64,000 nt of DNA from a virus (Duplodnaviria; Caudoviricetes): positions 32,001-96,000 of IMG/VR virus record IMGVR_UViG_2706795344_000001; one strand, 5' to 3'. The notes beneath the pieces were generated by a model that saw only the letters and a program-made list of their open reading frames with translations, did not search any database and was not told the DNA's origin. The translations under genes were made by a program, and so were the position numbers. Shown here piece by piece: positions 15,171-63,354 of this stretch. Position 1 is the stretch's first letter, and the number at the start of each line of letters is the position of its first letter.

Positions 15171-15488
15171 CTGGTATTCAACAAACTCTTTTAAAGCATC
15201 CACAAAGAATGGTTGCATAATAAGTTGCACACACAAAGCTTCATCGAAGATTTTTCCGACATTGACATCTGTTTCAAATCCGATTTCTTCGAAATGTTGA
15301 TTGATACGTTTAGCAAAGACGTCACCATCTATATCTGGACAACACTTTTCCATGAACTCCTCAAGCTTTTCAGCGTAGACTGGGTTCTCAAATATATCCA
15401 GCAATGCCGATGGGTCACACCCCTTGAATTCATTAACACGGTCATCAATATATTGCTCAACCCGTTTATTGATCGTATCAAAGTCCAC
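15165..15488 (-). CDS. Hypothetical acidic protein
   Basis: ORF with RBS GGAGGTG, overlapping the upstream kinase gene. Confidence 0.6.
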   Translation of the reverse strand: MDFDTINKRVEQYIDDRVNEFKGCDPSALLDIFENPVYAEKLEEFMEKCCPDIDGDVFAKRINQHFEEIGFETDVNVGKIFDEALCVQLIMQPFFVDALKEFVEYQK

Positions 15489-16113
15489 TGATCACCTCCT
15501 TCATATGGTTATTAATGCTCACAGAATCGCGCAGGAGCGCTTTTAACACATTTAATGGTGAATCATAGCCAAAGCCGAGAAAGTCCCTTAAATAAGCCTC
15601 TGAGAACTCTTTATGATTATGTCGCAACAATCCTCCCCAAGCATACTGCATGGTTAAGCTCTCATCTCTACTCTGTTCTCGACCAAAGCTTTGGTATTTA
15701 ACTTCAGGGTCATGTTTGAGTACGATGTTCAATGTGTTACCTTCGCCCACCATTTCTTCATGATTTTTGTAGAAGCGATCACAATGATCATCCCAATGAG
15801 TCCAAGGCATGTCAGGTTTTACACTCTTATTGGATAGGCCATAGAACTTTCCTGTCAGTACAGGAGAATCTGTGATAACTACATCACAACCAGAATTCAA
15901 ATATAGACCAAGTAGACGTGCTTGCTCACCTGTTATTGTCCATTGGTTTACGCTATTTGTACTTAAACCATTTAGGATAGGTTCCTTAATCCACTCACGA
16001 CAGTATTCAGCATTAATACCTTTTAATTTAAGTGCGTTGGCAAGTGTAGTAGCTAATATAGTTTTTCCTGTACCTGCTGCACCAAAAATGTTTATCAATA
16101 ATGGCTTCTTCAT
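15478..16113 (-). CDS. NadR/Ttd14-like (AAA_28) P-loop kinase
   Basis: INIFGAAGTGKT Walker A, E..RE, DVVITDSP and R.QS..E motifs. Confidence 0.75.
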   Translation of the reverse strand: MKKPLLINIFGAAGTGKTILATTLANALKLKGINAEYCREWIKEPILNGLSTNSVNQWTITGEQARLLGLYLNSGCDVVITDSPVLTGKFYGLSNKSVKPDMPWTHWDDHCDRFYKNHEEMVGEGNTLNIVLKHDPEVKYQSFGREQSRDESLTMQYAWGGLLRHNHKEFSEAYLRDFLGFGYDSPLNVLKALLRDSVSINNHMKEVISGL

Positions 16114-18640: not shown

Positions 18641-19111
18641 ATGTCGTGGAATAATCTATCTGATAGATGGAAGGATTACTTTATTAAGGAGCTACATTTA
18701 ATTGCATCAATGTCAAGAGATGTGGATACAAAGGTTGGGGCGATTATTATTGATACAGAGAATAAAGTTGTCATAGCTAAAGGCTACAACGATTTACCAA
18801 GAGGTGTCTATCATCACATTGCTAGAAACTCTAGGCCACTTAAATATAAATACACAACACATGCTGAAATGAATGCACTCTTCAATGCCTTATATCAAGG
18901 TGCTAGTGTTAAGGGTGCAACAATGTTGTGTACGTTATTCTCATGTTCTACATGTTGTGGTGGTGTGATTCAGAGTGGTATCAAAGAGTTTGTTTGCCCT
19001 GAACCTGATTGGGAGTACCCATCTTTAAAAGAAGATTTCCCTGTAACAAGTCAGATGTATGATGAAGCACTTGTACATGTAATATTTGAGGAGAAGTTAT
19101 CGAATGTCTAA
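18641..19111 (+). CDS. dCMP deaminase
   Basis: TKVGA, GYN, HAEMNA and CSTC zinc motifs. Confidence 0.9.
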   Translation: MSWNNLSDRWKDYFIKELHLIASMSRDVDTKVGAIIIDTENKVVIAKGYNDLPRGVYHHIARNSRPLKYKYTTHAEMNALFNALYQGASVKGATMLCTLFSCSTCCGGVIQSGIKEFVCPEPDWEYPSLKEDFPVTSQMYDEALVHVIFEEKLSNV

Positions 19112-21185
19112 CATCCCAACAAATATGATCTGGAAGAAGGTTAAGGGTGAATGGACAATTGGTAAGTTCATGGGTGTAGATTGGAGTGGTATAGTTTGGG
19201 AGGATGAAGGTAAACAACCATGCCCACATTGCCAAGCTAATGGAGAGGATAGGTCAGGAAACAACTTCCATGTTTATGGTTTAGACGAGCTTGGACGTCC
19301 ATTAGGTGGGAAATGTTTTAGGGAAGAGCTAGTCATTGTTTCTGTAGAGAAAGCAATTGATGATGCAAATGAAGAAAGTGGTAATGCTGCCAAGGATTAT
19401 GTAAAGAAGTATGACGGAGGTAAGTCGGTAAATATGTCAGCATTTGATGAGAAGAAGTTAAGTAAAGAAAAAGCCAAACTCAAACGTGAGCGTCTGAGTG
19501 GTGAAGAGTTAAGACAAATCCTAGAAGATACTGGTGACGACCCTAGAATGTTACGTGGTATGGATTTGGAAACCTCTAGGAAATATGATATTCGATATCA
19601 GTATGATACGAGTACAGGTAAAGCAAAAGTAATGATGATTCCAGCATTCATTGAAGAGGATGGTGAGTTTGTTATTACAGGTTATAAATGTCGTAACTTC
19701 CGTAAGAAGAAAGATCAGGAAGGTCACTTCTACTCTATTGGTTACGTAGGTAAACTGAACTGTTTCATGGGCCAGAATATTGCTAAGTCAGCTAACCATG
19801 CACTTATTGTTGGTGGTGAGATTGATGTTATTGCAGCCGATACTCTACTTAAGAAACATTCAAAGCTTAAGCAATACAACAAGAACTATGTTGTATTAAG
19901 CTCATTGGTTGGTGAGCCAGCTACATTTGAAGTGTGTAAACAAAACTACGAATTCATGTCTGGTTTCAGCAAAGTGGTAGTTGCACTAGACAATGATAAT
20001 GCTGGTAAAGAAGCTACTGAGCGTGTTAAAGAAGTTCTTCCAAATGAAACACTATTTGTTGCGAAACTCTCTTATAAGGACCCATGGGTTTATTGGGAGG
20101 AATTCAAAAAGAATGGTAATAAAGAAGCACCTAAAGAATTTGAGAATGATGTTCATTGGAACAGTAAAGTTGTCAAGTCGTTTGGTTTAGTTGGTTCACG
20201 ATCTTTACTATCACGAGCAATTGAGCATGTGGTACGTCCTAAGATTCCTTTACCAGCCTTCTTACGTGATTTGGATGATTATTTTACCGATGGTATTGGT
20301 CTCGGTGAAATCTTTAACATCATCTCTAACACTTCTACAGGTAAATCTGTTTATGTGAATGAGATGATCTCTGATTGGGTTGTAAATGCACCATACAAGA
20401 TGTGTATTTTCTCGTTAGAGGATAACTGTGGTTCATATGGTACTAAGATTGCTTCTCGCTTAATTGGTCGCTCCATTCACCGTGTTAAGGGTGCAGAGAA
20501 TCGTCGTAAGATTCTTGAGGACAATGAAGAGAAGATCATGGAGTTCTTAACTGACAAAGAAACTGGTGAAGATGCATTCTACTTAATTGAAGAGGCATTC
20601 AGTGACTTAGAGCAAGTTAAGCAAGCTATTCTTCAGGCTATTAAAGTTCTTGGCTGTAAGATCATTGTAATTGACCCATTAGTCAACTTGATCTCGCATA
20701 AGACAAATGAAGAGCAGATTGCATTCATGGTGTTCGAAGAAGAGTGTCGTCGTATCTATGATGTGACATTCATTAACGTGTGTCATACACGTAAAATTGG
20801 TGGTGGTGGTTCGAAAGCAGCTTCTCAAGGTGGAGACATCACAGAGGAAGATGTGAAGGGTTCAAGCCAGATTACAGGTTCAGCGACTATCAATATGATT
20901 ATTCGTCGTGACAAAGGTAATCCAGACCCAATCATCCGTAACACTACTGAGATCGACTTGATGAAGAATCGTACAGATGGTACTACAGGTAAGAGCGTTG
21001 CAAAAATCTTCTATCATGGAGAATCACATACACTCATTCCTTATAGTATTGCTGAGGAGAATGACTTCTTCCAAGATGGTCAAAAGGTTGACTTCAATCG
21101 TAAGGGTGTCACACCTGTAACTACACAGGAGGATGCAGAAGATGATAATGAAGTTGTAGACCCTAAAGAAATGGATTTTGCTTAA
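19104..21185 (+). CDS. DNA primase-helicase (T7 gp4-like)
   Basis: CPHC zinc finger; TOPRIM GGEID and DNDNAG; SF4 helicase STGKS, SLED, IVIDP, HTRK, GSSQI and KNR motifs. Confidence 0.92.
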   Translation: MSNIPTNMIWKKVKGEWTIGKFMGVDWSGIVWEDEGKQPCPHCQANGEDRSGNNFHVYGLDELGRPLGGKCFREELVIVSVEKAIDDANEESGNAAKDYVKKYDGGKSVNMSAFDEKKLSKEKAKLKRERLSGEELRQILEDTGDDPRMLRGMDLETSRKYDIRYQYDTSTGKAKVMMIPAFIEEDGEFVITGYKCRNFRKKKDQEGHFYSIGYVGKLNCFMGQNIAKSANHALIVGGEIDVIAADTLLKKHSKLKQYNKNYVVLSSLVGEPATFEVCKQNYEFMSGFSKVVVALDNDNAGKEATERVKEVLPNETLFVAKLSYKDPWVYWEEFKKNGNKEAPKEFENDVHWNSKVVKSFGLVGSRSLLSRAIEHVVRPKIPLPAFLRDLDDYFTDGIGLGEIFNIISNTSTGKSVYVNEMISDWVVNAPYKMCIFSLEDNCGSYGTKIASRLIGRSIHRVKGAENRRKILEDNEEKIMEFLTDKETGEDAFYLIEEAFSDLEQVKQAILQAIKVLGCKIIVIDPLVNLISHKTNEEQIAFMVFEEECRRIYDVTFINVCHTRKIGGGGSKAASQGGDITEEDVKGSSQITGSATINMIIRRDKGNPDPIIRNTTEIDLMKNRTDGTTGKSVAKIFYHGESHTLIPYSIAEENDFFQDGQKVDFNRKGVTPVTTQEDAEDDNEVVDPKEMDFA

Positions 21186-21245: not shown

Positions 21246-21611
21246 ATGGAAAAGAATTTTGGTAATTTAATTTTAGATTTATTTAAATTAAACACAGGAG
21301 ATGAGGTAATTCGTTTAGCAGATTTTAGAATGCTGTCTGCTGAAGGTGTTGAATATAATTTTTTCTTTGGCAATGTTTATAACTTTGAGATTAATCTTGC
21401 ACACTACAGTAAAGAGTTTGTGAAAGGTCAAGGGGATGTACATAACTTTGTGTTATCTGTAACACAGGGTGCTATTAAAAAGTCTTCAATAATTTCTCAT
21501 GAAGCTTTAAATATCGTTGGTGAACAAGGTCTCATTAAAACTATTAAACGTATTTGTAATGAAATTATTTCTGAGCGTTTGAATGAAGTGTTAGGGGGTG
21601 ATAGTGTCTAA
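21246..21611 (+). CDS. Hypothetical protein
   Basis: Strong RBS AGGAGG. Confidence 0.65.
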   Translation: MEKNFGNLILDLFKLNTGDEVIRLADFRMLSAEGVEYNFFFGNVYNFEINLAHYSKEFVKGQGDVHNFVLSVTQGAIKKSSIISHEALNIVGEQGLIKTIKRICNEIISERLNEVLGGDSV

Positions 21612-23667
21612 GGATTTAAAACTACGTTTTTTCGCAAGTGACTTGGAGGCAACTGGTTTAATCTGGCAGATGATACAACAAGGTGATGATAAGAAGCTTC
21701 ATAACTTTTGTGGTATTGAAATCAAGGATAGTAAGTTTCAAGATATCCAGATGCATCATCCACATACAAAGAAAGCAATTCAACGATTGCAAGATTGGAT
21801 TGATGACCCTGAAAATGTTTTCATTATTCATAATGCCTATACATATGATTTACATGCATTAGAATTATTTGGGTTAGATACATCTAAGATGAAGATTATT
21901 GATACTCTACCGTTATCTTGGTACTTGCATCACGATCGTGAACGTCATGGTCTTGAGTGGTGGGGTGAAGAGTTTGGTGTACCTAAACCGAAGATCGACA
22001 ATTGGGAAGACTTAACACAAGAAGAGTATGATCATCGTGTTATAGAGGACTGTAAGATTCAACGATTGTTATGGATGAAGTTGTGTACTGAATTTGGAGA
22101 GATGTATGGAGTTAAGACTCAAACAGAAGTATATAACCATCCAGCATTTAAGTACATTCAATTTAAGTCTAAGCAATTGGCTGAGCAGATGCGTAATAAG
22201 TGGAAATTTAATGTAGAGGGTGGTAAGAAACTCTATGAGGAATTAGAAGCTGAAATTGCGACACGTACAGAAACATTGAAGTCTGTAATGCCAAAAGTAC
22301 CTAAGTATGCTAAACGTAAGCCACCAGCTAAACCTTATAAAGCTAATGGTGAACTTTCGGCTACAGGTGAGAAATGGAAAAAACTTTGTGAAGATAATGG
22401 GTATGATTTTAATACTTATCGAGGTGAGATTCAGGAACTTACTAAGTATGAGGAACCAAACCCTGCATCATCACAACAGAAGAAAGCTTGGTTGACCAGC
22501 TTAGGTTGGGAGCCAATGACCTTTGAATACAAGCGTCAGCCAGATGGTACTACACGTGCTATCCCTCAGATTAATAAGAAAAACTCTGGTGGATTGGTAT
22601 GTGAGTCTGTATCTTTACTTGCTGAAGAAGTTCCAGAGGTTAAAGCTTTAGAAGGTCTGGGAATTGTTAACCATCGATTTAGTATGGTTAAAGGTTGGTT
22701 AGAGAACCATGAAGACGGGTATTTGATTGCACAAGCTGGTGGATTCACAAACACATTACGTTTGAAACACCGTATTCTTGTGAACATGCCTTCTGGTCGT
22801 GTACCTTATGGTTTGGCTATCCGTGGATTGCTTGAGGCACGTGAAGGATGTACATTAACTGGTGCAGACTTAAGTTCCTTGGAGAACCGTTGGAAGTTCC
22901 ACCATCAGTACCCTTTAGACCCTGATTATGTAGAGGCACAGATGTCAGATGACTTTGACCCTCACTTAGCACTAGCTGAGATGGCAGGGTTATTAGATGC
23001 TGACGATGTAAACTTCTATAAATTATTTGAAAGTGGTTACACCATCCCAGAAGAGTGTTATACTGATGAGCTTAAGCGACGTATTGCTAAAGCTGAGAAG
23101 GATGAAGACTGGAAGCACTCAGAGATTAAGCGTATTGCTAAAATCCGTGGTGTTGGTAAAAATGGTAACTATGCTTTACAATATGGTTCTGGTGTTGAGA
23201 CTTTGGCCCGTACTGCTAAGATTACAAGAAAAGAAGCTACAAAGCTTAAGGCTGGTTATGATAAACTTAACTGGACTATTCCTGTTATCGCTAAAGCACA
23301 GCGTGTTAAGGATTTCAAACATGGACGATTCTTGTACAATCGTGAGAATAAGTTCTGGTATCCATTAAAGGCTGAGAAAGATAGATTCTCTACTCTTATT
23401 CAAGGTAGTGGTTCTTACACTCTCGACTTGTGGATTATGAAGTTCTTCCAGATTCGCAAGAAAGCTATTGAATCAGGCCGTATTAAGTTTGCTAGATTGT
23501 TGGGTACATTCCACGATGAATTGATCTTAGAGCACCGTACAGAGGATTCTGAGGCTATTCGTGAGATGTTAAAGGAAGCTATTGACTTAGTTAATAAATC
23601 ATTAAAGCTTTCTGTAGACTTGACATGTGATATCAAACAAGGTAATACTTACTCGGAGATACATTAA
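21598..23667 (+). CDS. DNA polymerase family A (T7-like, Tyr at the position equivalent to PolI 762) with 3'-5' exonuclease
   Basis: Exonuclease DLEATG, HNAYTYD and EDC; polymerase ADLSSLE (motif A), RGVGKNGNYALQYG (motif B) and FHDE (motif C). Confidence 0.95.
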   Translation: MIVSKDLKLRFFASDLEATGLIWQMIQQGDDKKLHNFCGIEIKDSKFQDIQMHHPHTKKAIQRLQDWIDDPENVFIIHNAYTYDLHALELFGLDTSKMKIIDTLPLSWYLHHDRERHGLEWWGEEFGVPKPKIDNWEDLTQEEYDHRVIEDCKIQRLLWMKLCTEFGEMYGVKTQTEVYNHPAFKYIQFKSKQLAEQMRNKWKFNVEGGKKLYEELEAEIATRTETLKSVMPKVPKYAKRKPPAKPYKANGELSATGEKWKKLCEDNGYDFNTYRGEIQELTKYEEPNPASSQQKKAWLTSLGWEPMTFEYKRQPDGTTRAIPQINKKNSGGLVCESVSLLAEEVPEVKALEGLGIVNHRFSMVKGWLENHEDGYLIAQAGGFTNTLRLKHRILVNMPSGRVPYGLAIRGLLEAREGCTLTGADLSSLENRWKFHHQYPLDPDYVEAQMSDDFDPHLALAEMAGLLDADDVNFYKLFESGYTIPEECYTDELKRRIAKAEKDEDWKHSEIKRIAKIRGVGKNGNYALQYGSGVETLARTAKITRKEATKLKAGYDKLNWTIPVIAKAQRVKDFKHGRFLYNRENKFWYPLKAEKDRFSTLIQGSGSYTLDLWIMKFFQIRKKAIESGRIKFARLLGTFHDELILEHRTEDSEAIREMLKEAIDLVNKSLKLSVDLTCDIKQGNTYSEIH

Positions 23668-47183: not shown

Positions 47184-48137
47184 ATGGGTTTAAAAGAAGG
47201 TAAGCGTCCAATTGTGATAAAACAAACTAAGCCACAAATTACCATGGCTGGTACTGAGACGGTTCTAACAGTTAAGAAATATGCTCGTGAGATATTTTAC
47301 AATAATCTGTGGAATGAGTATCCTGAAGCGATTAAAAATCGTGGTGCTGTGTTTATTGGAGATACACCAGTAGTTTCTCCTATGGACAAATGCTTTAACT
47401 ACAAAGAGAATGGTGTTGGATTAGATGTTAGTGATGAAACCCATGTATATGTTTACCGTAAGGTGAATGGTTACATGGCTAATTTAACATACATCAATGG
47501 TATTGGTTGGATTATCTCAACTACTGGTGATGCAATGATTGTTGGGAATAAGACTGACAATAAGTATCTAAATATGGCCCAAGAATATTTTGAGCGTTTT
47601 GATGCTTATGCATATTATTTGGAACTGTCACAAGCTGTTGATTCTCGTATTGTTGAGTTGAAAGATCAGCCACCTTTGACAATCACCTTTGAGATTACAC
47701 ACCCAGATGACCCTCATATTGTGGAAGAGTTGTATGGTGTTTACGCTTTGTGTTATCAGATCGGTGATAATCAGCGACCATGTTTTAACATTTATACAGT
47801 GAAACATTGTGTTGTTCCTGTACGTGGAAAGCTTATGACATTTGGTCAAGCTAAAGCAGAGCTTCAAGAATGTAAACATGAAGGGTTTATGGTGTATAAC
47901 ATTAATCATAAATTATTATTCAAATTGAAGTCTCCTTATTACTTGGCAAAGAAATGGGTTCAGCGTCGTAGTGCAGACCATTTGTGGAGTCCTCTGTATA
48001 AGAGTCGTATGGAAGAGGAATACTACCCTATTGTTGTACGTATTCGTGAGAAGTTGACTAAGGAAGAGTGGGATGCTTTGGATGAGAAAGGTAAGTCAGC
48101 TTTATTCTTAGAAGTGTATAAGGAGTTGTTAGGTTAA
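47184..48137 (+). CDS. RNA ligase, Rnl1-like
   Basis: RG.V, KCFNY.E, RKVNG (motif I), FEI.HP, EGFMV and KLKSPYY. Confidence 0.8.
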   Translation: MGLKEGKRPIVIKQTKPQITMAGTETVLTVKKYAREIFYNNLWNEYPEAIKNRGAVFIGDTPVVSPMDKCFNYKENGVGLDVSDETHVYVYRKVNGYMANLTYINGIGWIISTTGDAMIVGNKTDNKYLNMAQEYFERFDAYAYYLELSQAVDSRIVELKDQPPLTITFEITHPDDPHIVEELYGVYALCYQIGDNQRPCFNIYTVKHCVVPVRGKLMTFGQAKAELQECKHEGFMVYNINHKLLFKLKSPYYLAKKWVQRRSADHLWSPLYKSRMEEEYYPIVVRIREKLTKEEWDALDEKGKSALFLEVYKELLG

Positions 48138-48550
48138 TGAATAATAAGATACTATGGTTTGTACGTGGTGTCTCAGGAGCTGGAAAGAGTACCGTAGCAA
48201 AAGTGTTACGGGAACAGCTACCATTTGGTTGTGGAACTGAGGCTGATGACTTTCGTTATATCGATGGTCGGTATGCATGGGAGGAGGTCCCAAATTATAT
48301 TGCACACCGTAAATGTTTTGATACTACAAAAGAATACTTGATAGATGGTCGTCAAAATGTGGTAGTATCCAATACATCGACAAGAAGTAAAGATGTTCGC
48401 AAGTATAAGAAGCTTGCAGAAGAATTTGGATATATGTTTATCTCTATTGTGGTTGAGAATTACCATGAGACAGGTAATACACACAATGTACCATATGCTA
48501 CACTTGTTGATATGGAAAATAAACTACGTGGTAGTATTAAATTAAAGTGA
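48137..48550 (+). CDS. Polynucleotide kinase-like P-loop kinase (AAA_33)
   Basis: VRGVSGAGKST, EADD, AH..C, VVVSNT and HNVP. Confidence 0.8.
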   Translation: MNNKILWFVRGVSGAGKSTVAKVLREQLPFGCGTEADDFRYIDGRYAWEEVPNYIAHRKCFDTTKEYLIDGRQNVVVSNTSTRSKDVRKYKKLAEEFGYMFISIVVENYHETGNTHNVPYATLVDMENKLRGSIKLK

Positions 48551-61539: not shown

Positions 61540-61886
61540 AAAAGTTAGTTAAAGAATTCCATGAACATAGCTTAAAGCAGCGTAATACCAAGCGTACAAG
61601 TAAGATGCTCTGCGATGCTGCATTCTACATCATGAATAGCAAAAGCAGTAGAGAAGCTATTATTGTGGGAGCTACTGAGCATCATTTAGCTGAGATGAAG
61701 GCTACAGCAAATCGACTTTTCAATTCTCACATAGCATGTTCTATGGTATTCGTGACAAGAAGTGCCTTAGATGACAAAGTTAAAGGTAGAAATGAGAAAA
61801 CTTACAAGGTGTTCTATGACCACTTTGCTTTAGAGTCAGAGATTGCTAAACTGTTAGTAGAGTACACCAAGTACGAGGAGAACTAA
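61536..61886 (+). CDS. Miniature degenerate terminase/P-loop ATPase-like protein (paralogue 1)
   Basis: QRNTKRT (RxxGKT-like), IIVGAT...A and KG...KVFYDH (Walker B-like). Confidence 0.45.
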   Translation: MKKLVKEFHEHSLKQRNTKRTSKMLCDAAFYIMNSKSSREAIIVGATEHHLAEMKATANRLFNSHIACSMVFVTRSALDDKVKGRNEKTYKVFYDHFALESEIAKLLVEYTKYEEN

Positions 61887-62267
61887 GTGGAAAGAATACC
61901 TAAAGATATGAAAGAGGCATCGGAACATTTTAGGGCTATTAGTTCTTTTAAACATAGAATTAATCGAAGTGTTCGAATGCTTTGTCAGGCATTGTTCCAT
62001 GTGTCAAATGGCTATTCTGGAAATCATTCTATAGTTGTTGCTTTGGATGAAGATCATAAGAAACAGCTAGAAGATAAAGCTAAGGAGATGTTCTCTACTG
62101 AGGTACTTAAACATATTGGATTCATTAGTTACGAAAAGTATAAGAAGTTTAATAGGGAAGGTGAGGTGGTAGGTTTAAAATATTTTATCGACCCTGCTTG
62201 CCTTGAAGATGATATCGCTGTACTATTAAAGAAGTGGGAACAGTACGATGACCCAAGAGATTATTAA
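61887..62267 (+). CDS. Miniature degenerate terminase/P-loop ATPase-like protein (paralogue 2)
   Basis: Aligns with 61536-61886: R...RS.RMLC, IVVA, A..MF, F.D...LE..IA.LL.....Y. Confidence 0.45.
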   Translation: MERIPKDMKEASEHFRAISSFKHRINRSVRMLCQALFHVSNGYSGNHSIVVALDEDHKKQLEDKAKEMFSTEVLKHIGFISYEKYKKFNREGEVVGLKYFIDPACLEDDIAVLLKKWEQYDDPRDY

Positions 62268-62278
62268 CGGAGACTGAT

Positions 62279-62785
62279 ATGTCACACTTTGGTATAGACC
62301 CAAGAGCAGCTAAAGAATTTTGGAATGAGAAAACCAAAGAGCCATTCGATTTTGACTGGAAAGAAATCAATGCAGATATGGCTGCTGCTGTAGTACACAA
62401 CCTAAGAGTATGTGAGGCGTTCCTATTTGGACGTTTCCCTAGCGCTGAGGAAGCTAAGGAACATATCGATGTGTGGGCAGAGTGGCAAGAGATACGTCGT
62501 AATAACCCTGTAAGCTTCTTCAAGCCACGAAAGATGCCAAACGTTGGAACTATAGGGTATCCAGAAGAACCTTGCTTAAACGAGCTTACACGCTTAATTA
62601 GAGGTAGTATTGCTAAGGACGAACTGTGTATGGTGGTTGGTAAACCTACAAATGCATCTACTGTACGTCCTGAAGTGTTGGAGTTTTATAAGAGTCGTCG
62701 TAGTAGTAATCCTATATTGCATGTAGCTCTTGAAGACACTAAGCCTTATCTAATTGATAGGTACTTAGGAACCTCAATAAAATAA
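62279..62785 (+). CDS. Protein carrying an EF-Tu-like NVGTIG motif and a dead DnaB-helicase H1/H1a fragment
   Basis: Ungapped register with this phage's own helicase segment LRDLDD...STGKSV...FSLED. Confidence 0.5.
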   Translation: MSHFGIDPRAAKEFWNEKTKEPFDFDWKEINADMAAAVVHNLRVCEAFLFGRFPSAEEAKEHIDVWAEWQEIRRNNPVSFFKPRKMPNVGTIGYPEEPCLNELTRLIRGSIAKDELCMVVGKPTNASTVRPEVLEFYKSRRSSNPILHVALEDTKPYLIDRYLGTSIK

Positions 62786-62801: not shown

Positions 62802-63002
62802 ATGAGTCATGACTTACACACAAGAACAGCTATGTGGATGTTTGATGTTGGGGCTAGTGAAGTGACGGAAACTCAGAGACGTGGAGCTAAAGCATATAAC
62901 TATGCTAAACAGTATGGAGCTAGTAATACAACAGCTACTGTTGAAGCCATCAAAGCTATGCGAGAGGGTAAGTGTGAAGTGTACAGGAATGAGGGAGCTT
63001 AG
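62802..63002 (+). CDS. Stand-alone DNA polymerase A fingers/O-helix (motif B) mini-protein
   Basis: DLH..TA...F.V...EVT..QRR.AKA.NY...YG.S; RBS GGAG. Confidence 0.7.
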   Translation: MSHDLHTRTAMWMFDVGASEVTETQRRGAKAYNYAKQYGASNTTATVEAIKAMREGKCEVYRNEGA

Positions 63003-63014
63003 GCTCTCTTTTTT
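62992..63014 (+). terminator. Intrinsic terminator closing the decoy-like cluster
   Basis: AGGGAGC-ttag-GCTCTCT-TTTTT. Confidence 0.75.
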
Positions 63015-63019
63015 ATTGT

Positions 63020-63101: not shown

Positions 63102-63130
63102 TTGACACCTATGTATGTTATAAATATAAT
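63102..63130 (+). promoter_or_regulatory. Consensus sigma70 promoter
   Basis: TTGACA-17-TATAAT with upstream A/T tracts. Confidence 0.8.
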
Positions 63131-63136
63131 GAAATC

Positions 63137-63354
63137 TCTTTAATGTAGTAAGTTAATAAGTTGATTTAAGATTGGTGGCATTGCAGTGCCAAGTATATAG
63201 GAGTGTTGGGTATGTGAACTTATGTGGTAGATAGGTGTGACACTATGGAAGATTGGTAGACGAAGTGCTATACATTTCCAGCATCTTGATGGAGGTTCAT
63301 GAAAGTGTCTAATGAGCTGTGAGAAATTGCCCATGCTTTGTCGTGGGCTTTTTT
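63137..63354 (+). ncRNA. Candidate ~220 nt small transcript containing only minigenes
   Basis: Bounded by a consensus promoter and the terminator GCCCATG-ctttgt-CGTGGGC-TTTTTT; ATG-initiated ORFs are at most 7 codons. Confidence 0.45.

Follow-up and report, generated by a model that had tools for sequence, protein, structure and literature searches.

A small conserved gene of Saclayvirus-type phages probably encodes a non-catalytic piece of an SF4 helicase ATPase domain

Results

Layout of the locus

The window, by which we mean the whole 64,000-nucleotide stretch of DNA that was analysed, is part of a 104.9-kb virus record, and its ORF168 region shows 72-85% DNA identity to Saclayvirus phages of Acinetobacter baumannii. 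ORF168 is the penultimate gene in a row of small same-strand genes, with sigma-70-like promoters upstream of the row at about 59409 and 60155, and its ATG lies 6 nt from a GGAG. The features on which the analysis rests are the following.

62269-62272, plus strand: Shine-Dalgarno-like GGAG of ORF168, read directly from the sequence
62279-62785, plus strand: ORF168, an open reading frame of 168 amino acids whose family is confined to Saclayvirus-type Acinetobacter phages and a few metagenome contigs
62321-62518, plus strand: variable helical middle of ORF168 (residues about 15-80), from a drop in nucleotide identity, dS > 1 and predicted helices
62561-62782, plus strand: helicase-like module (ORF168 residues 95-168), very probably homologous to about residues 388-465 of gp4-like primase-helicases, from hhalign, a KaiC match and Smith-Waterman alignments
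62639-62662, plus strand: degenerate P-loop GKPTNAST (ORF168 residues 121-128) in place of Walker A, with Ser at the Lys position, from alignments
62729-62737, plus strand: retained H1a motif L-E-D (ORF168 residues 151-153), from alignments
62802-63002, plus strand: ORF66, a free-standing gene of 66 aa that encodes the motif B (O-helix) piece of a DNA polymerase A (Pfam DNA_pol_A, 1e-8, with 35.0 bits where the cut-off is 34.3; NCBIfam Pol I, 3.6e-8)
about 62991-63018, plus strand: intrinsic terminator ending the multi-gene unit that contains ORF168 and the polymerase fragment
19086-21185, plus strand: resident T7 gp4-like primase-helicase of 699 aa (Pfam Toprim_2 and DnaB_C, PHROG 239; T7 gp4 structures, E 1e-8)

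Homologues of ORF168, at 48-76% identity, were found only in 16 Saclayvirus-type records and a few assembled contigs. An alignment of this family (hereafter A1) has 14 conserved N-terminal residues, a variable middle and a strongly conserved block at about residues 83-156; within this block G121, P123 and S127 are nearly invariant, positions 124-129 vary across orthologues, and L151, E152 and T154 are invariant. ORF168 has no match in Pfam, PHROGs, NCBIfam or PADLOC, and a search of the ESM Atlas returned no usable match. Since it matches neither a PADLOC model nor a PHROG of known function, it could not be assigned to a known defence or anti-defence protein. When a HMMER profile of the family was run against 1.84 billion protein representatives it retrieved its own family and one spurious entry, and no helicase. 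The spurious entry (P0013), a database 'protein' of 1285 aa, is a translated tandem DNA repeat in which 13 weak repeat matches to the ORF168 profile sum to an apparent match.

Pairwise comparison with the resident helicase

The initial annotation, made from the sequence of the window alone, had described nucleotides 62576-62737, which code for ORF168 residues 100-153, as a dead helicase fragment aligned without gaps to nucleotides 20262-20423, which code for residues 393-446 of the resident primase-helicase. The coordinates and translations of both segments are correct, and the ungapped alignment of 54 residues exists, with 8/54 identities, 18 positives and a BLOSUM62 score of 8. At this fixed position it lies at z = 4 relative to shuffles; once the 74,290 possible window pairs were allowed for, however, 95 of 100 shuffled ORFs had, at some place along the helicase, a 54-mer that matched at least as well. 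By the shuffling check that had been proposed beforehand the score is therefore not above controls, and as a pairwise match the alignment is at chance level. Nor did BLASTP of ORF168 against the resident helicase report it.

The spacing from the G-I-x-x-x-E motif through Walker A to L-E-D, said to be identical to that of the helicase, is so in the window phage and in phage Aci05, whereas most orthologues have one residue fewer from the P-loop to L-E-D; the orthologue P0002 carries a 14-residue insertion after RG.

Profile-level evidence for homology

Comparison of whole families by hhalign gave a different result from the single pair. When A1 was aligned with A2, an alignment of 36 gp4-like primase-helicases that are 31-89% identical to the resident one, one match was obtained (score 36.4, P 3.1e-4), pairing ORF168 59-155 with helicase 333-449, and its core, ORF168 96-156 against helicase 387-449, is exactly the register noted earlier. 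With only those helicases that share 31-44% identity with the resident one, the score was 40.8 (P 6.6e-5, probability 64%), and it was still 38.5 (P 1.4e-4) when the window ORF168 and its nearest relative were also removed. Five resident-type helicases alone gave no signal (score 17.7, P 0.18). Overall, the comparisons of the ORF168 family with helicases yielded P-values of 7e-5 to 8e-4 and probabilities of 25-64%.

These scores were set against several controls. Reversing one of the two alignments reduced the score to 16-19 (P 0.13-0.3), and 120 column shuffles of A1 had a mean of 16.2 (sd 2.9, maximum 23.9) compared with 33.7 for the real alignment in the same setting. Three families of small genes from the neighbourhood, serving as negative controls against the helicase and Pol A profiles, scored 11-16.5 (P above 0.1). 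As a positive control, ORF66, a true Pol A fragment, scored 30.7 (P 4.1e-4) against the Pol A profile.

An unselected scan was also performed, in which orthologue alignments from five related genomes were built for 86 of the 101 non-overlapping window ORFs and compared with the helicase profile; the list of 86 omits very strong hits, including the self-match of the helicase family, which leaves the ranking of the remainder unaffected. Against a median score of 15.8 and a 90th percentile of 21.7, the ORF168 family ranked second (score 34.5, P 4.8e-4), and about 0.04 families would be expected by chance at P <= 4.8e-4. Ranks 1 and 5 were held by genuine P-loop proteins (AAA_28 and AAA_33), which indicates that the scan detects true distant relatives at such scores. 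The two small P-loop proteins that match the helicase profile are encoded at 15481-16113 on the minus strand (Pfam AAA_28) and at 48137-48547 on the plus strand (AAA_33 / Zeta toxin / dNK-like). The P-values for ORF168 carry some selection bias, as the comparison was prompted by a resemblance that had already been noticed.

Profile-to-sequence searches were silent: hmmsearch with an HMM of the helicase segment against all 572 window ORFs, and with an ORF168 HMM against the same set, gave no link, and Pfam DnaB_C matched none of 11 ORF168 family members at E <= 10.

Other routes to the same register

A second line of evidence came from Pfam. Residues 105-168 of one orthologue (P0010) match positions 7-70 of the KaiC model (PF06745) with E 0.027 and 14.3 bits, which is below the gathering threshold of 26.6 bits and was obtained for one of 11 family members. 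In true helicases the same model begins at the equivalent point, with residues 393-546 of the resident helicase matching model positions 5-141 and residue 344 of the helicase of the IMG/VR contig L043 falling on model position 7. By all three routes, followed through the alignments, ORF168 residue 102 is placed at model position 7.

Direct alignment with helicases of other types agreed. In Smith-Waterman comparisons, ORF168 scored 50-70 against the helicase P0027 and its IMG/VR relative L043, where the background was 33 +/- 5 (Gumbel p 1e-5 to 7e-3), and p-values of 2e-3 to 4e-2 were obtained for the helicases of the Vibrio, Psychrobacter and Edwardsiella phages VH-8, D'Alembert and ET-ABTNL-9. 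With all five helicases the alignment landed on ORF168 residues about 89-157 or further, and with orthologues that have longer C-termini it spans 86 residues, continuing past H1a. BLASTP was blind to the alignments with the P0027-type and other helicases as well. When the register was held fixed, ORF168 had a mean BLOSUM score of 40 against P0027 and of 1 against the resident helicase.

The noted register is thus recovered by profile-profile comparison, by the KaiC match and by Smith-Waterman alignment with other gp4-like helicases, though not by BLASTP, and this agreement indicates that the resemblance of the ORF168 segment to the helicase is very probably real homology, as judged from sequence. 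The similarity is highest to the P0027 type and gives no signal with resident-type helicases, which speaks against the suggestion that the segment copies the phage's own helicase; ORF168 does not appear to be a recent copy of it, and seems closest to another gp4-like type.

The principal alternative is that ORF168 is an independent orphan in which a hydrophobic strand, a loop of small residues, a helix and a second strand fall into the helicase register by coincidence. The failure of the own-genome pair to exceed shuffles would fit such a coincidence, as would the silence of BLASTP and hmmsearch, the lack of any helicase among the 1.84 billion proteins searched with HMMER and the lack of a confident predicted fold (below). 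A control small protein also reached a comparable maximal Smith-Waterman score, of 63 against some helicases. On the other side, hhalign, Pfam KaiC, Smith-Waterman with five helicases and the family scan all share one register; the signal persists without both window sequences, while shuffled, reversed and real-family controls score far lower; and the conserved columns of the two families coincide at the GGI turn and at the L-E of H1a. We therefore regard coincidence as unlikely, and homology with SF4 helicases as a conclusion that can be held with good confidence.

Part of the motor probably represented in ORF168

The piece matched in ORF168 starts with the helix that precedes strand 1 and its GGI turn. 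Strand 1, the P-loop position and helix 1 come next, then strand 2, which ends in the H1a Glu, and a short continuation. At the P-loop position the Walker A pattern G-x-x-G-x-G-K-[ST] has become GKPTNAST, with the two inner Gly replaced by Thr and Ala and the Lys by a nearly invariant Ser; the loss of Gly-Lys-Ser had been recognised correctly in the initial annotation, and the position is variable within the family. The S-L-E strand bearing the H1a Glu is retained, with L151 and E152 invariant and aligned with E445, which is itself invariant in the 36 helicases. Walker B (H2), H3, the H4 DNA-binding loop and the arginine finger are all missing, as ORF168 ends 15-25 residues past H1a and the alignment reaches no further than about residue 465 of the 699 in the helicase.

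Without the Walker A Lys and all later motifs, the protein would neither bind nor hydrolyse NTP nor move on DNA: NTP binding or hydrolysis by ORF168 is excluded as far as sequence tells, and given homology it is practically certain that the protein is non-catalytic. These alignments support the view that the helicase-like part derives, in non-catalytic form, from the first portion of an SF4/RecA-type ATPase domain. The earlier description of a 'non-catalytic mimic' of the RecA core therefore holds as to the derivative but not as to the core, since only about 70-90 of roughly 290 motor residues are represented; 'mimic' would moreover be a statement about function.

Structure prediction, from which a beta1-helix-beta2 unit had been expected, gave no confident fold: two AlphaFold2 models, with mean pLDDT of 44 (window protein) and 52 (the longer orthologue P0008), predict no strands in the helicase-like part. 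Both place helices at residues 100-110 and 131-138, where the RecA-type fold has helices, at low confidence. An isolated beta-alpha-beta piece of the RecA core is not expected to fold alone.

Among known systems, the T7 gp4-type helicase domain (SF4; PDB 1CR0, 1E0J and 6N7I; Pfam DnaB_C, PF03796) is collinear with the ORF168 piece from the P-x-x-P / L-x-x-L helix and the GGI turn through the L-E strand of H1a, and by transfer via the resident helicase the piece corresponds to about T7 gp4 residues 288-360. ORF168 differs in having about a quarter of the domain, with the Walker A Gly and Lys replaced and no primase part, in the approximately 95 unrelated and partly variable N-terminal residues that precede the match, and in falling below any Pfam threshold. 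The KaiC/RadA-type ATPases of the RecA superfamily (PF06745) provide the only Pfam model touched by the helicase-like part, with the same model start as in true helicases; here the differences lie in the shortfall of the match (14.3 against 26.6 bits, in 1/11 members) and in the absence of nucleotide-binding residues from ORF168.

Conservation and selection

ORF168 orthologues are intact in 16 of 16 related phage records, with no stop or frameshift at 48-70% protein identity. Estimates of dN/dS (Nei-Gojobori) were 0.22-0.41 among the other phages and 0.40-0.70 in comparisons with the window copy, in which the middle part has been replaced; in the helicase-like part omega was about 0.3. In contigs of near-identical genomes, 4/4 differences within the gene were third-position synonymous changes. 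No other stretch of the locus is as well conserved as the helicase-like part, which has a nucleotide identity of about 0.9. The middle of the gene (62321-62518) has a DNA identity to other Saclayviruses of 0.31-0.6, against about 0.9 for its flanks, and dS > 1, which points to a recombinational replacement inside the window gene and hence to a mosaic. Taken together, the intact frames, the dN/dS values, the synonymous changes and the presence of a ribosome-binding site, promoters and a terminator indicate a real gene under selection, and we have high confidence that ORF168 is functional.

Neighbouring genes and possible origin of the fragments

ORF66 follows every ORF168 orthologue. It keeps the R, K and Y of the O-helix and evolves under purifying selection (dN/dS 0.05-0.6); the resident Pol A is not its source. 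The two genes lie in different reading frames, each with its own ribosome-binding site, and their order, helicase piece then polymerase piece, is that of the resident replication module. Several DNA polymerase swaps, one of them together with the primase-helicase, have been described in the clade that holds Saclayvirus (PMC11348598), which makes a displaced or foreign replication module a plausible source of the fragments. A common donor for both was considered and set aside: the helicase type nearest ORF168, the P0027 type, adjoins in L043 a polymerase without a Pfam hit that carries a B-family-like motif; this enzyme is not a Pol A and is not matched by ORF66, so that the data do not support one shared donor.

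These data also bear on whether the locus might be the debris of a displaced replication module with no present function. The copied gene order, the swaps of polymerase and primase-helicase documented in the clade (PMC11348598), the fact that both pieces are internal fragments without catalytic sets and a weak collinear TOPRIM-like match in an upstream gene (below) would all be consistent with such a relic. Against it, the frames are undisrupted in 16 phages that have diverged to 48-70% protein identity, dN/dS is about 0.3 for ORF168 and 0.05-0.6 for ORF66, 4 of 4 changes among near-identical strains are synonymous, each ORF has a ribosome-binding site of its own, and the helicase-like part is the most conserved stretch; the position of the P0027-type relative beside a B-family-like polymerase, and not a Pol A, likewise argues against it. 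An inert relic is consequently improbable in our view.

Two other identities for ORF168 fared worse. A degenerate thymidylate/NMP kinase-like P-loop protein in another register, with its P-loop at about residues 85-95, was suggested by a profile search of solved structures (PDB), whose top entries were thymidylate kinases at positions 124-165, with R-Y after the strand; we rejected it as very improbable, since the match is not significant (E = 0.32), no Pfam or NCBIfam kinase model matches, the Asp of D-R-Y is not conserved and the register conflicts with the better-supported helicase register. That the C-terminus might be the palm/motif A portion of a Pol A remnant that also includes ORF66, which it adjoins with an acidic L-E-D about 26 residues before the D-x-H of ORF66, is barely credible, given an hhalign score of 14.5 (P 0.48) for the ORF168 family against a 26-sequence Pol A profile, compared with 30.7 for ORF66, and given the different reading frames of the two genes.

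Upstream of ORF168 lie genes of phrog_5437, whose copy number varies among Saclayviruses; in a comparison with all window families nothing significant was found for them. The second paralogue (61887-62267) is weakly similar to the part of the resident primase-helicase around the TOPRIM D-x-D (about residues 279-352), in collinear order with the helicase piece of ORF168, with a Smith-Waterman score of 64 (p 7e-4) and an hhalign P of 0.018 for close relatives only. The likeness was absent against a wider helicase profile and the acidic residues are not conserved, and as a reading of the sequence it is not established. In near-identical genomes from three public runs, 393 bases are skipped at 61886-62280, with AG between the two sides, and the second paralogue is lacking.

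A link between ORF168 and a homing endonuclease was likewise rejected, as an HNH gene follows the ORF66 orthologue in Aci05 only and is one of a family of free-standing genes whose sites are unrelated. In Aci05 this gene (L001 4707-5273) lies directly after the Pol A fragment gene. Its relatives occupy varied places: TaPaz has one after the RNR genes, Phab24 has one in the early region, and in Vibrio phage VH-8 and Psychrobacter phage D'Alembert one lies between the genes for primase-helicase and polymerase.

Discussion

The explanation that we favour is that the C-terminal half of ORF168 descends from the first 70-90 residues of the ATPase domain of an SF4 (T7 gp4 / DnaB / KaiC-like) helicase, most likely as a piece of a foreign or displaced replication module that was then retained. 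Because selection appears to have preserved exactly this piece, ORF168 may be a non-enzymatic binding module; a conserved but dead partial helicase surface, made from a promoter region of host type, would, on the simplest view, act by binding. Its partner could be a subunit of a ring helicase, whether of a rival phage, of the host or of the phage itself, or a factor that recognises a helicase surface, and binding would, in the early phase of infection, modulate assembly or sensing or stop it. We lean towards this combination of homology and function as the explanation of the gene.

A partial parallel is offered by Walker A mutants of T7 gp4, which, according to work reportedly from the Richardson laboratory, poison mixed hexamers. 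Like them, ORF168 would be helicase-derived without a working P-loop and could act only by joining active subunits; unlike ORF168, the mutants are full-length and enter the ring, while ORF168 lacks most of the fold. A literature search for truncated or dominant-negative phage helicases returned nothing relevant.

An immune-related role is conceivable in light of defences that respond to phage replication proteins, as escape from ShosTA maps to the primase-helicase and escape from Borvo to the DNA polymerase (bioRxiv 10.1101/2022.08.27.505566). By extension, the end of this early-looking operon might encode a few mini-proteins, kept by selection and drawn from the helicase P-loop region, the Pol A O-helix and perhaps TOPRIM, that act jointly as non-enzymatic binders, a proposal that we consider doubtful. 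Such mini-proteins could possibly jam the replisome of a rival phage or the host, or occupy immune sensors of replication proteins.

If both the homology and the selection are real, this phage keeps a short, dead piece of a ring helicase as a gene of its own, beside a similar piece of a polymerase, and pieces of the ORF168 type become candidate agents of protein-level interference, directed at replisomes or at the immune sensors of replication proteins. To our knowledge, few studies have dealt with protein-level interference in conflicts between phages or between phage and host. It would also follow that debris of genes left by swaps of replication modules can be put to use. Saclayviruses serve as agents against carbapenem-resistant Acinetobacter baumannii, and knowing the roles of their early accessory genes would be of practical value. 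Should the resemblance be due to chance, ORF168 would be one more orphan early gene.

Other features of the window

Downstream of the unit that contains ORF168, a candidate small RNA is suggested at 63102-63354, where a perfect promoter (TTGACA-17-TATAAT) precedes about 215 nt that hold no sizeable ORF, and a strong terminator lies at 63329-63348; the region has no Rfam match at E <= 1. Elsewhere, many close relatives of the resident Pol A (21598-23667) are polymerases of 790-990 aa (P0100-P0131) in which the match to the query spans only 55% of the region searched and Pfam LAGLIDADG_3 is present, and by sequence these look like intein-bearing genes.
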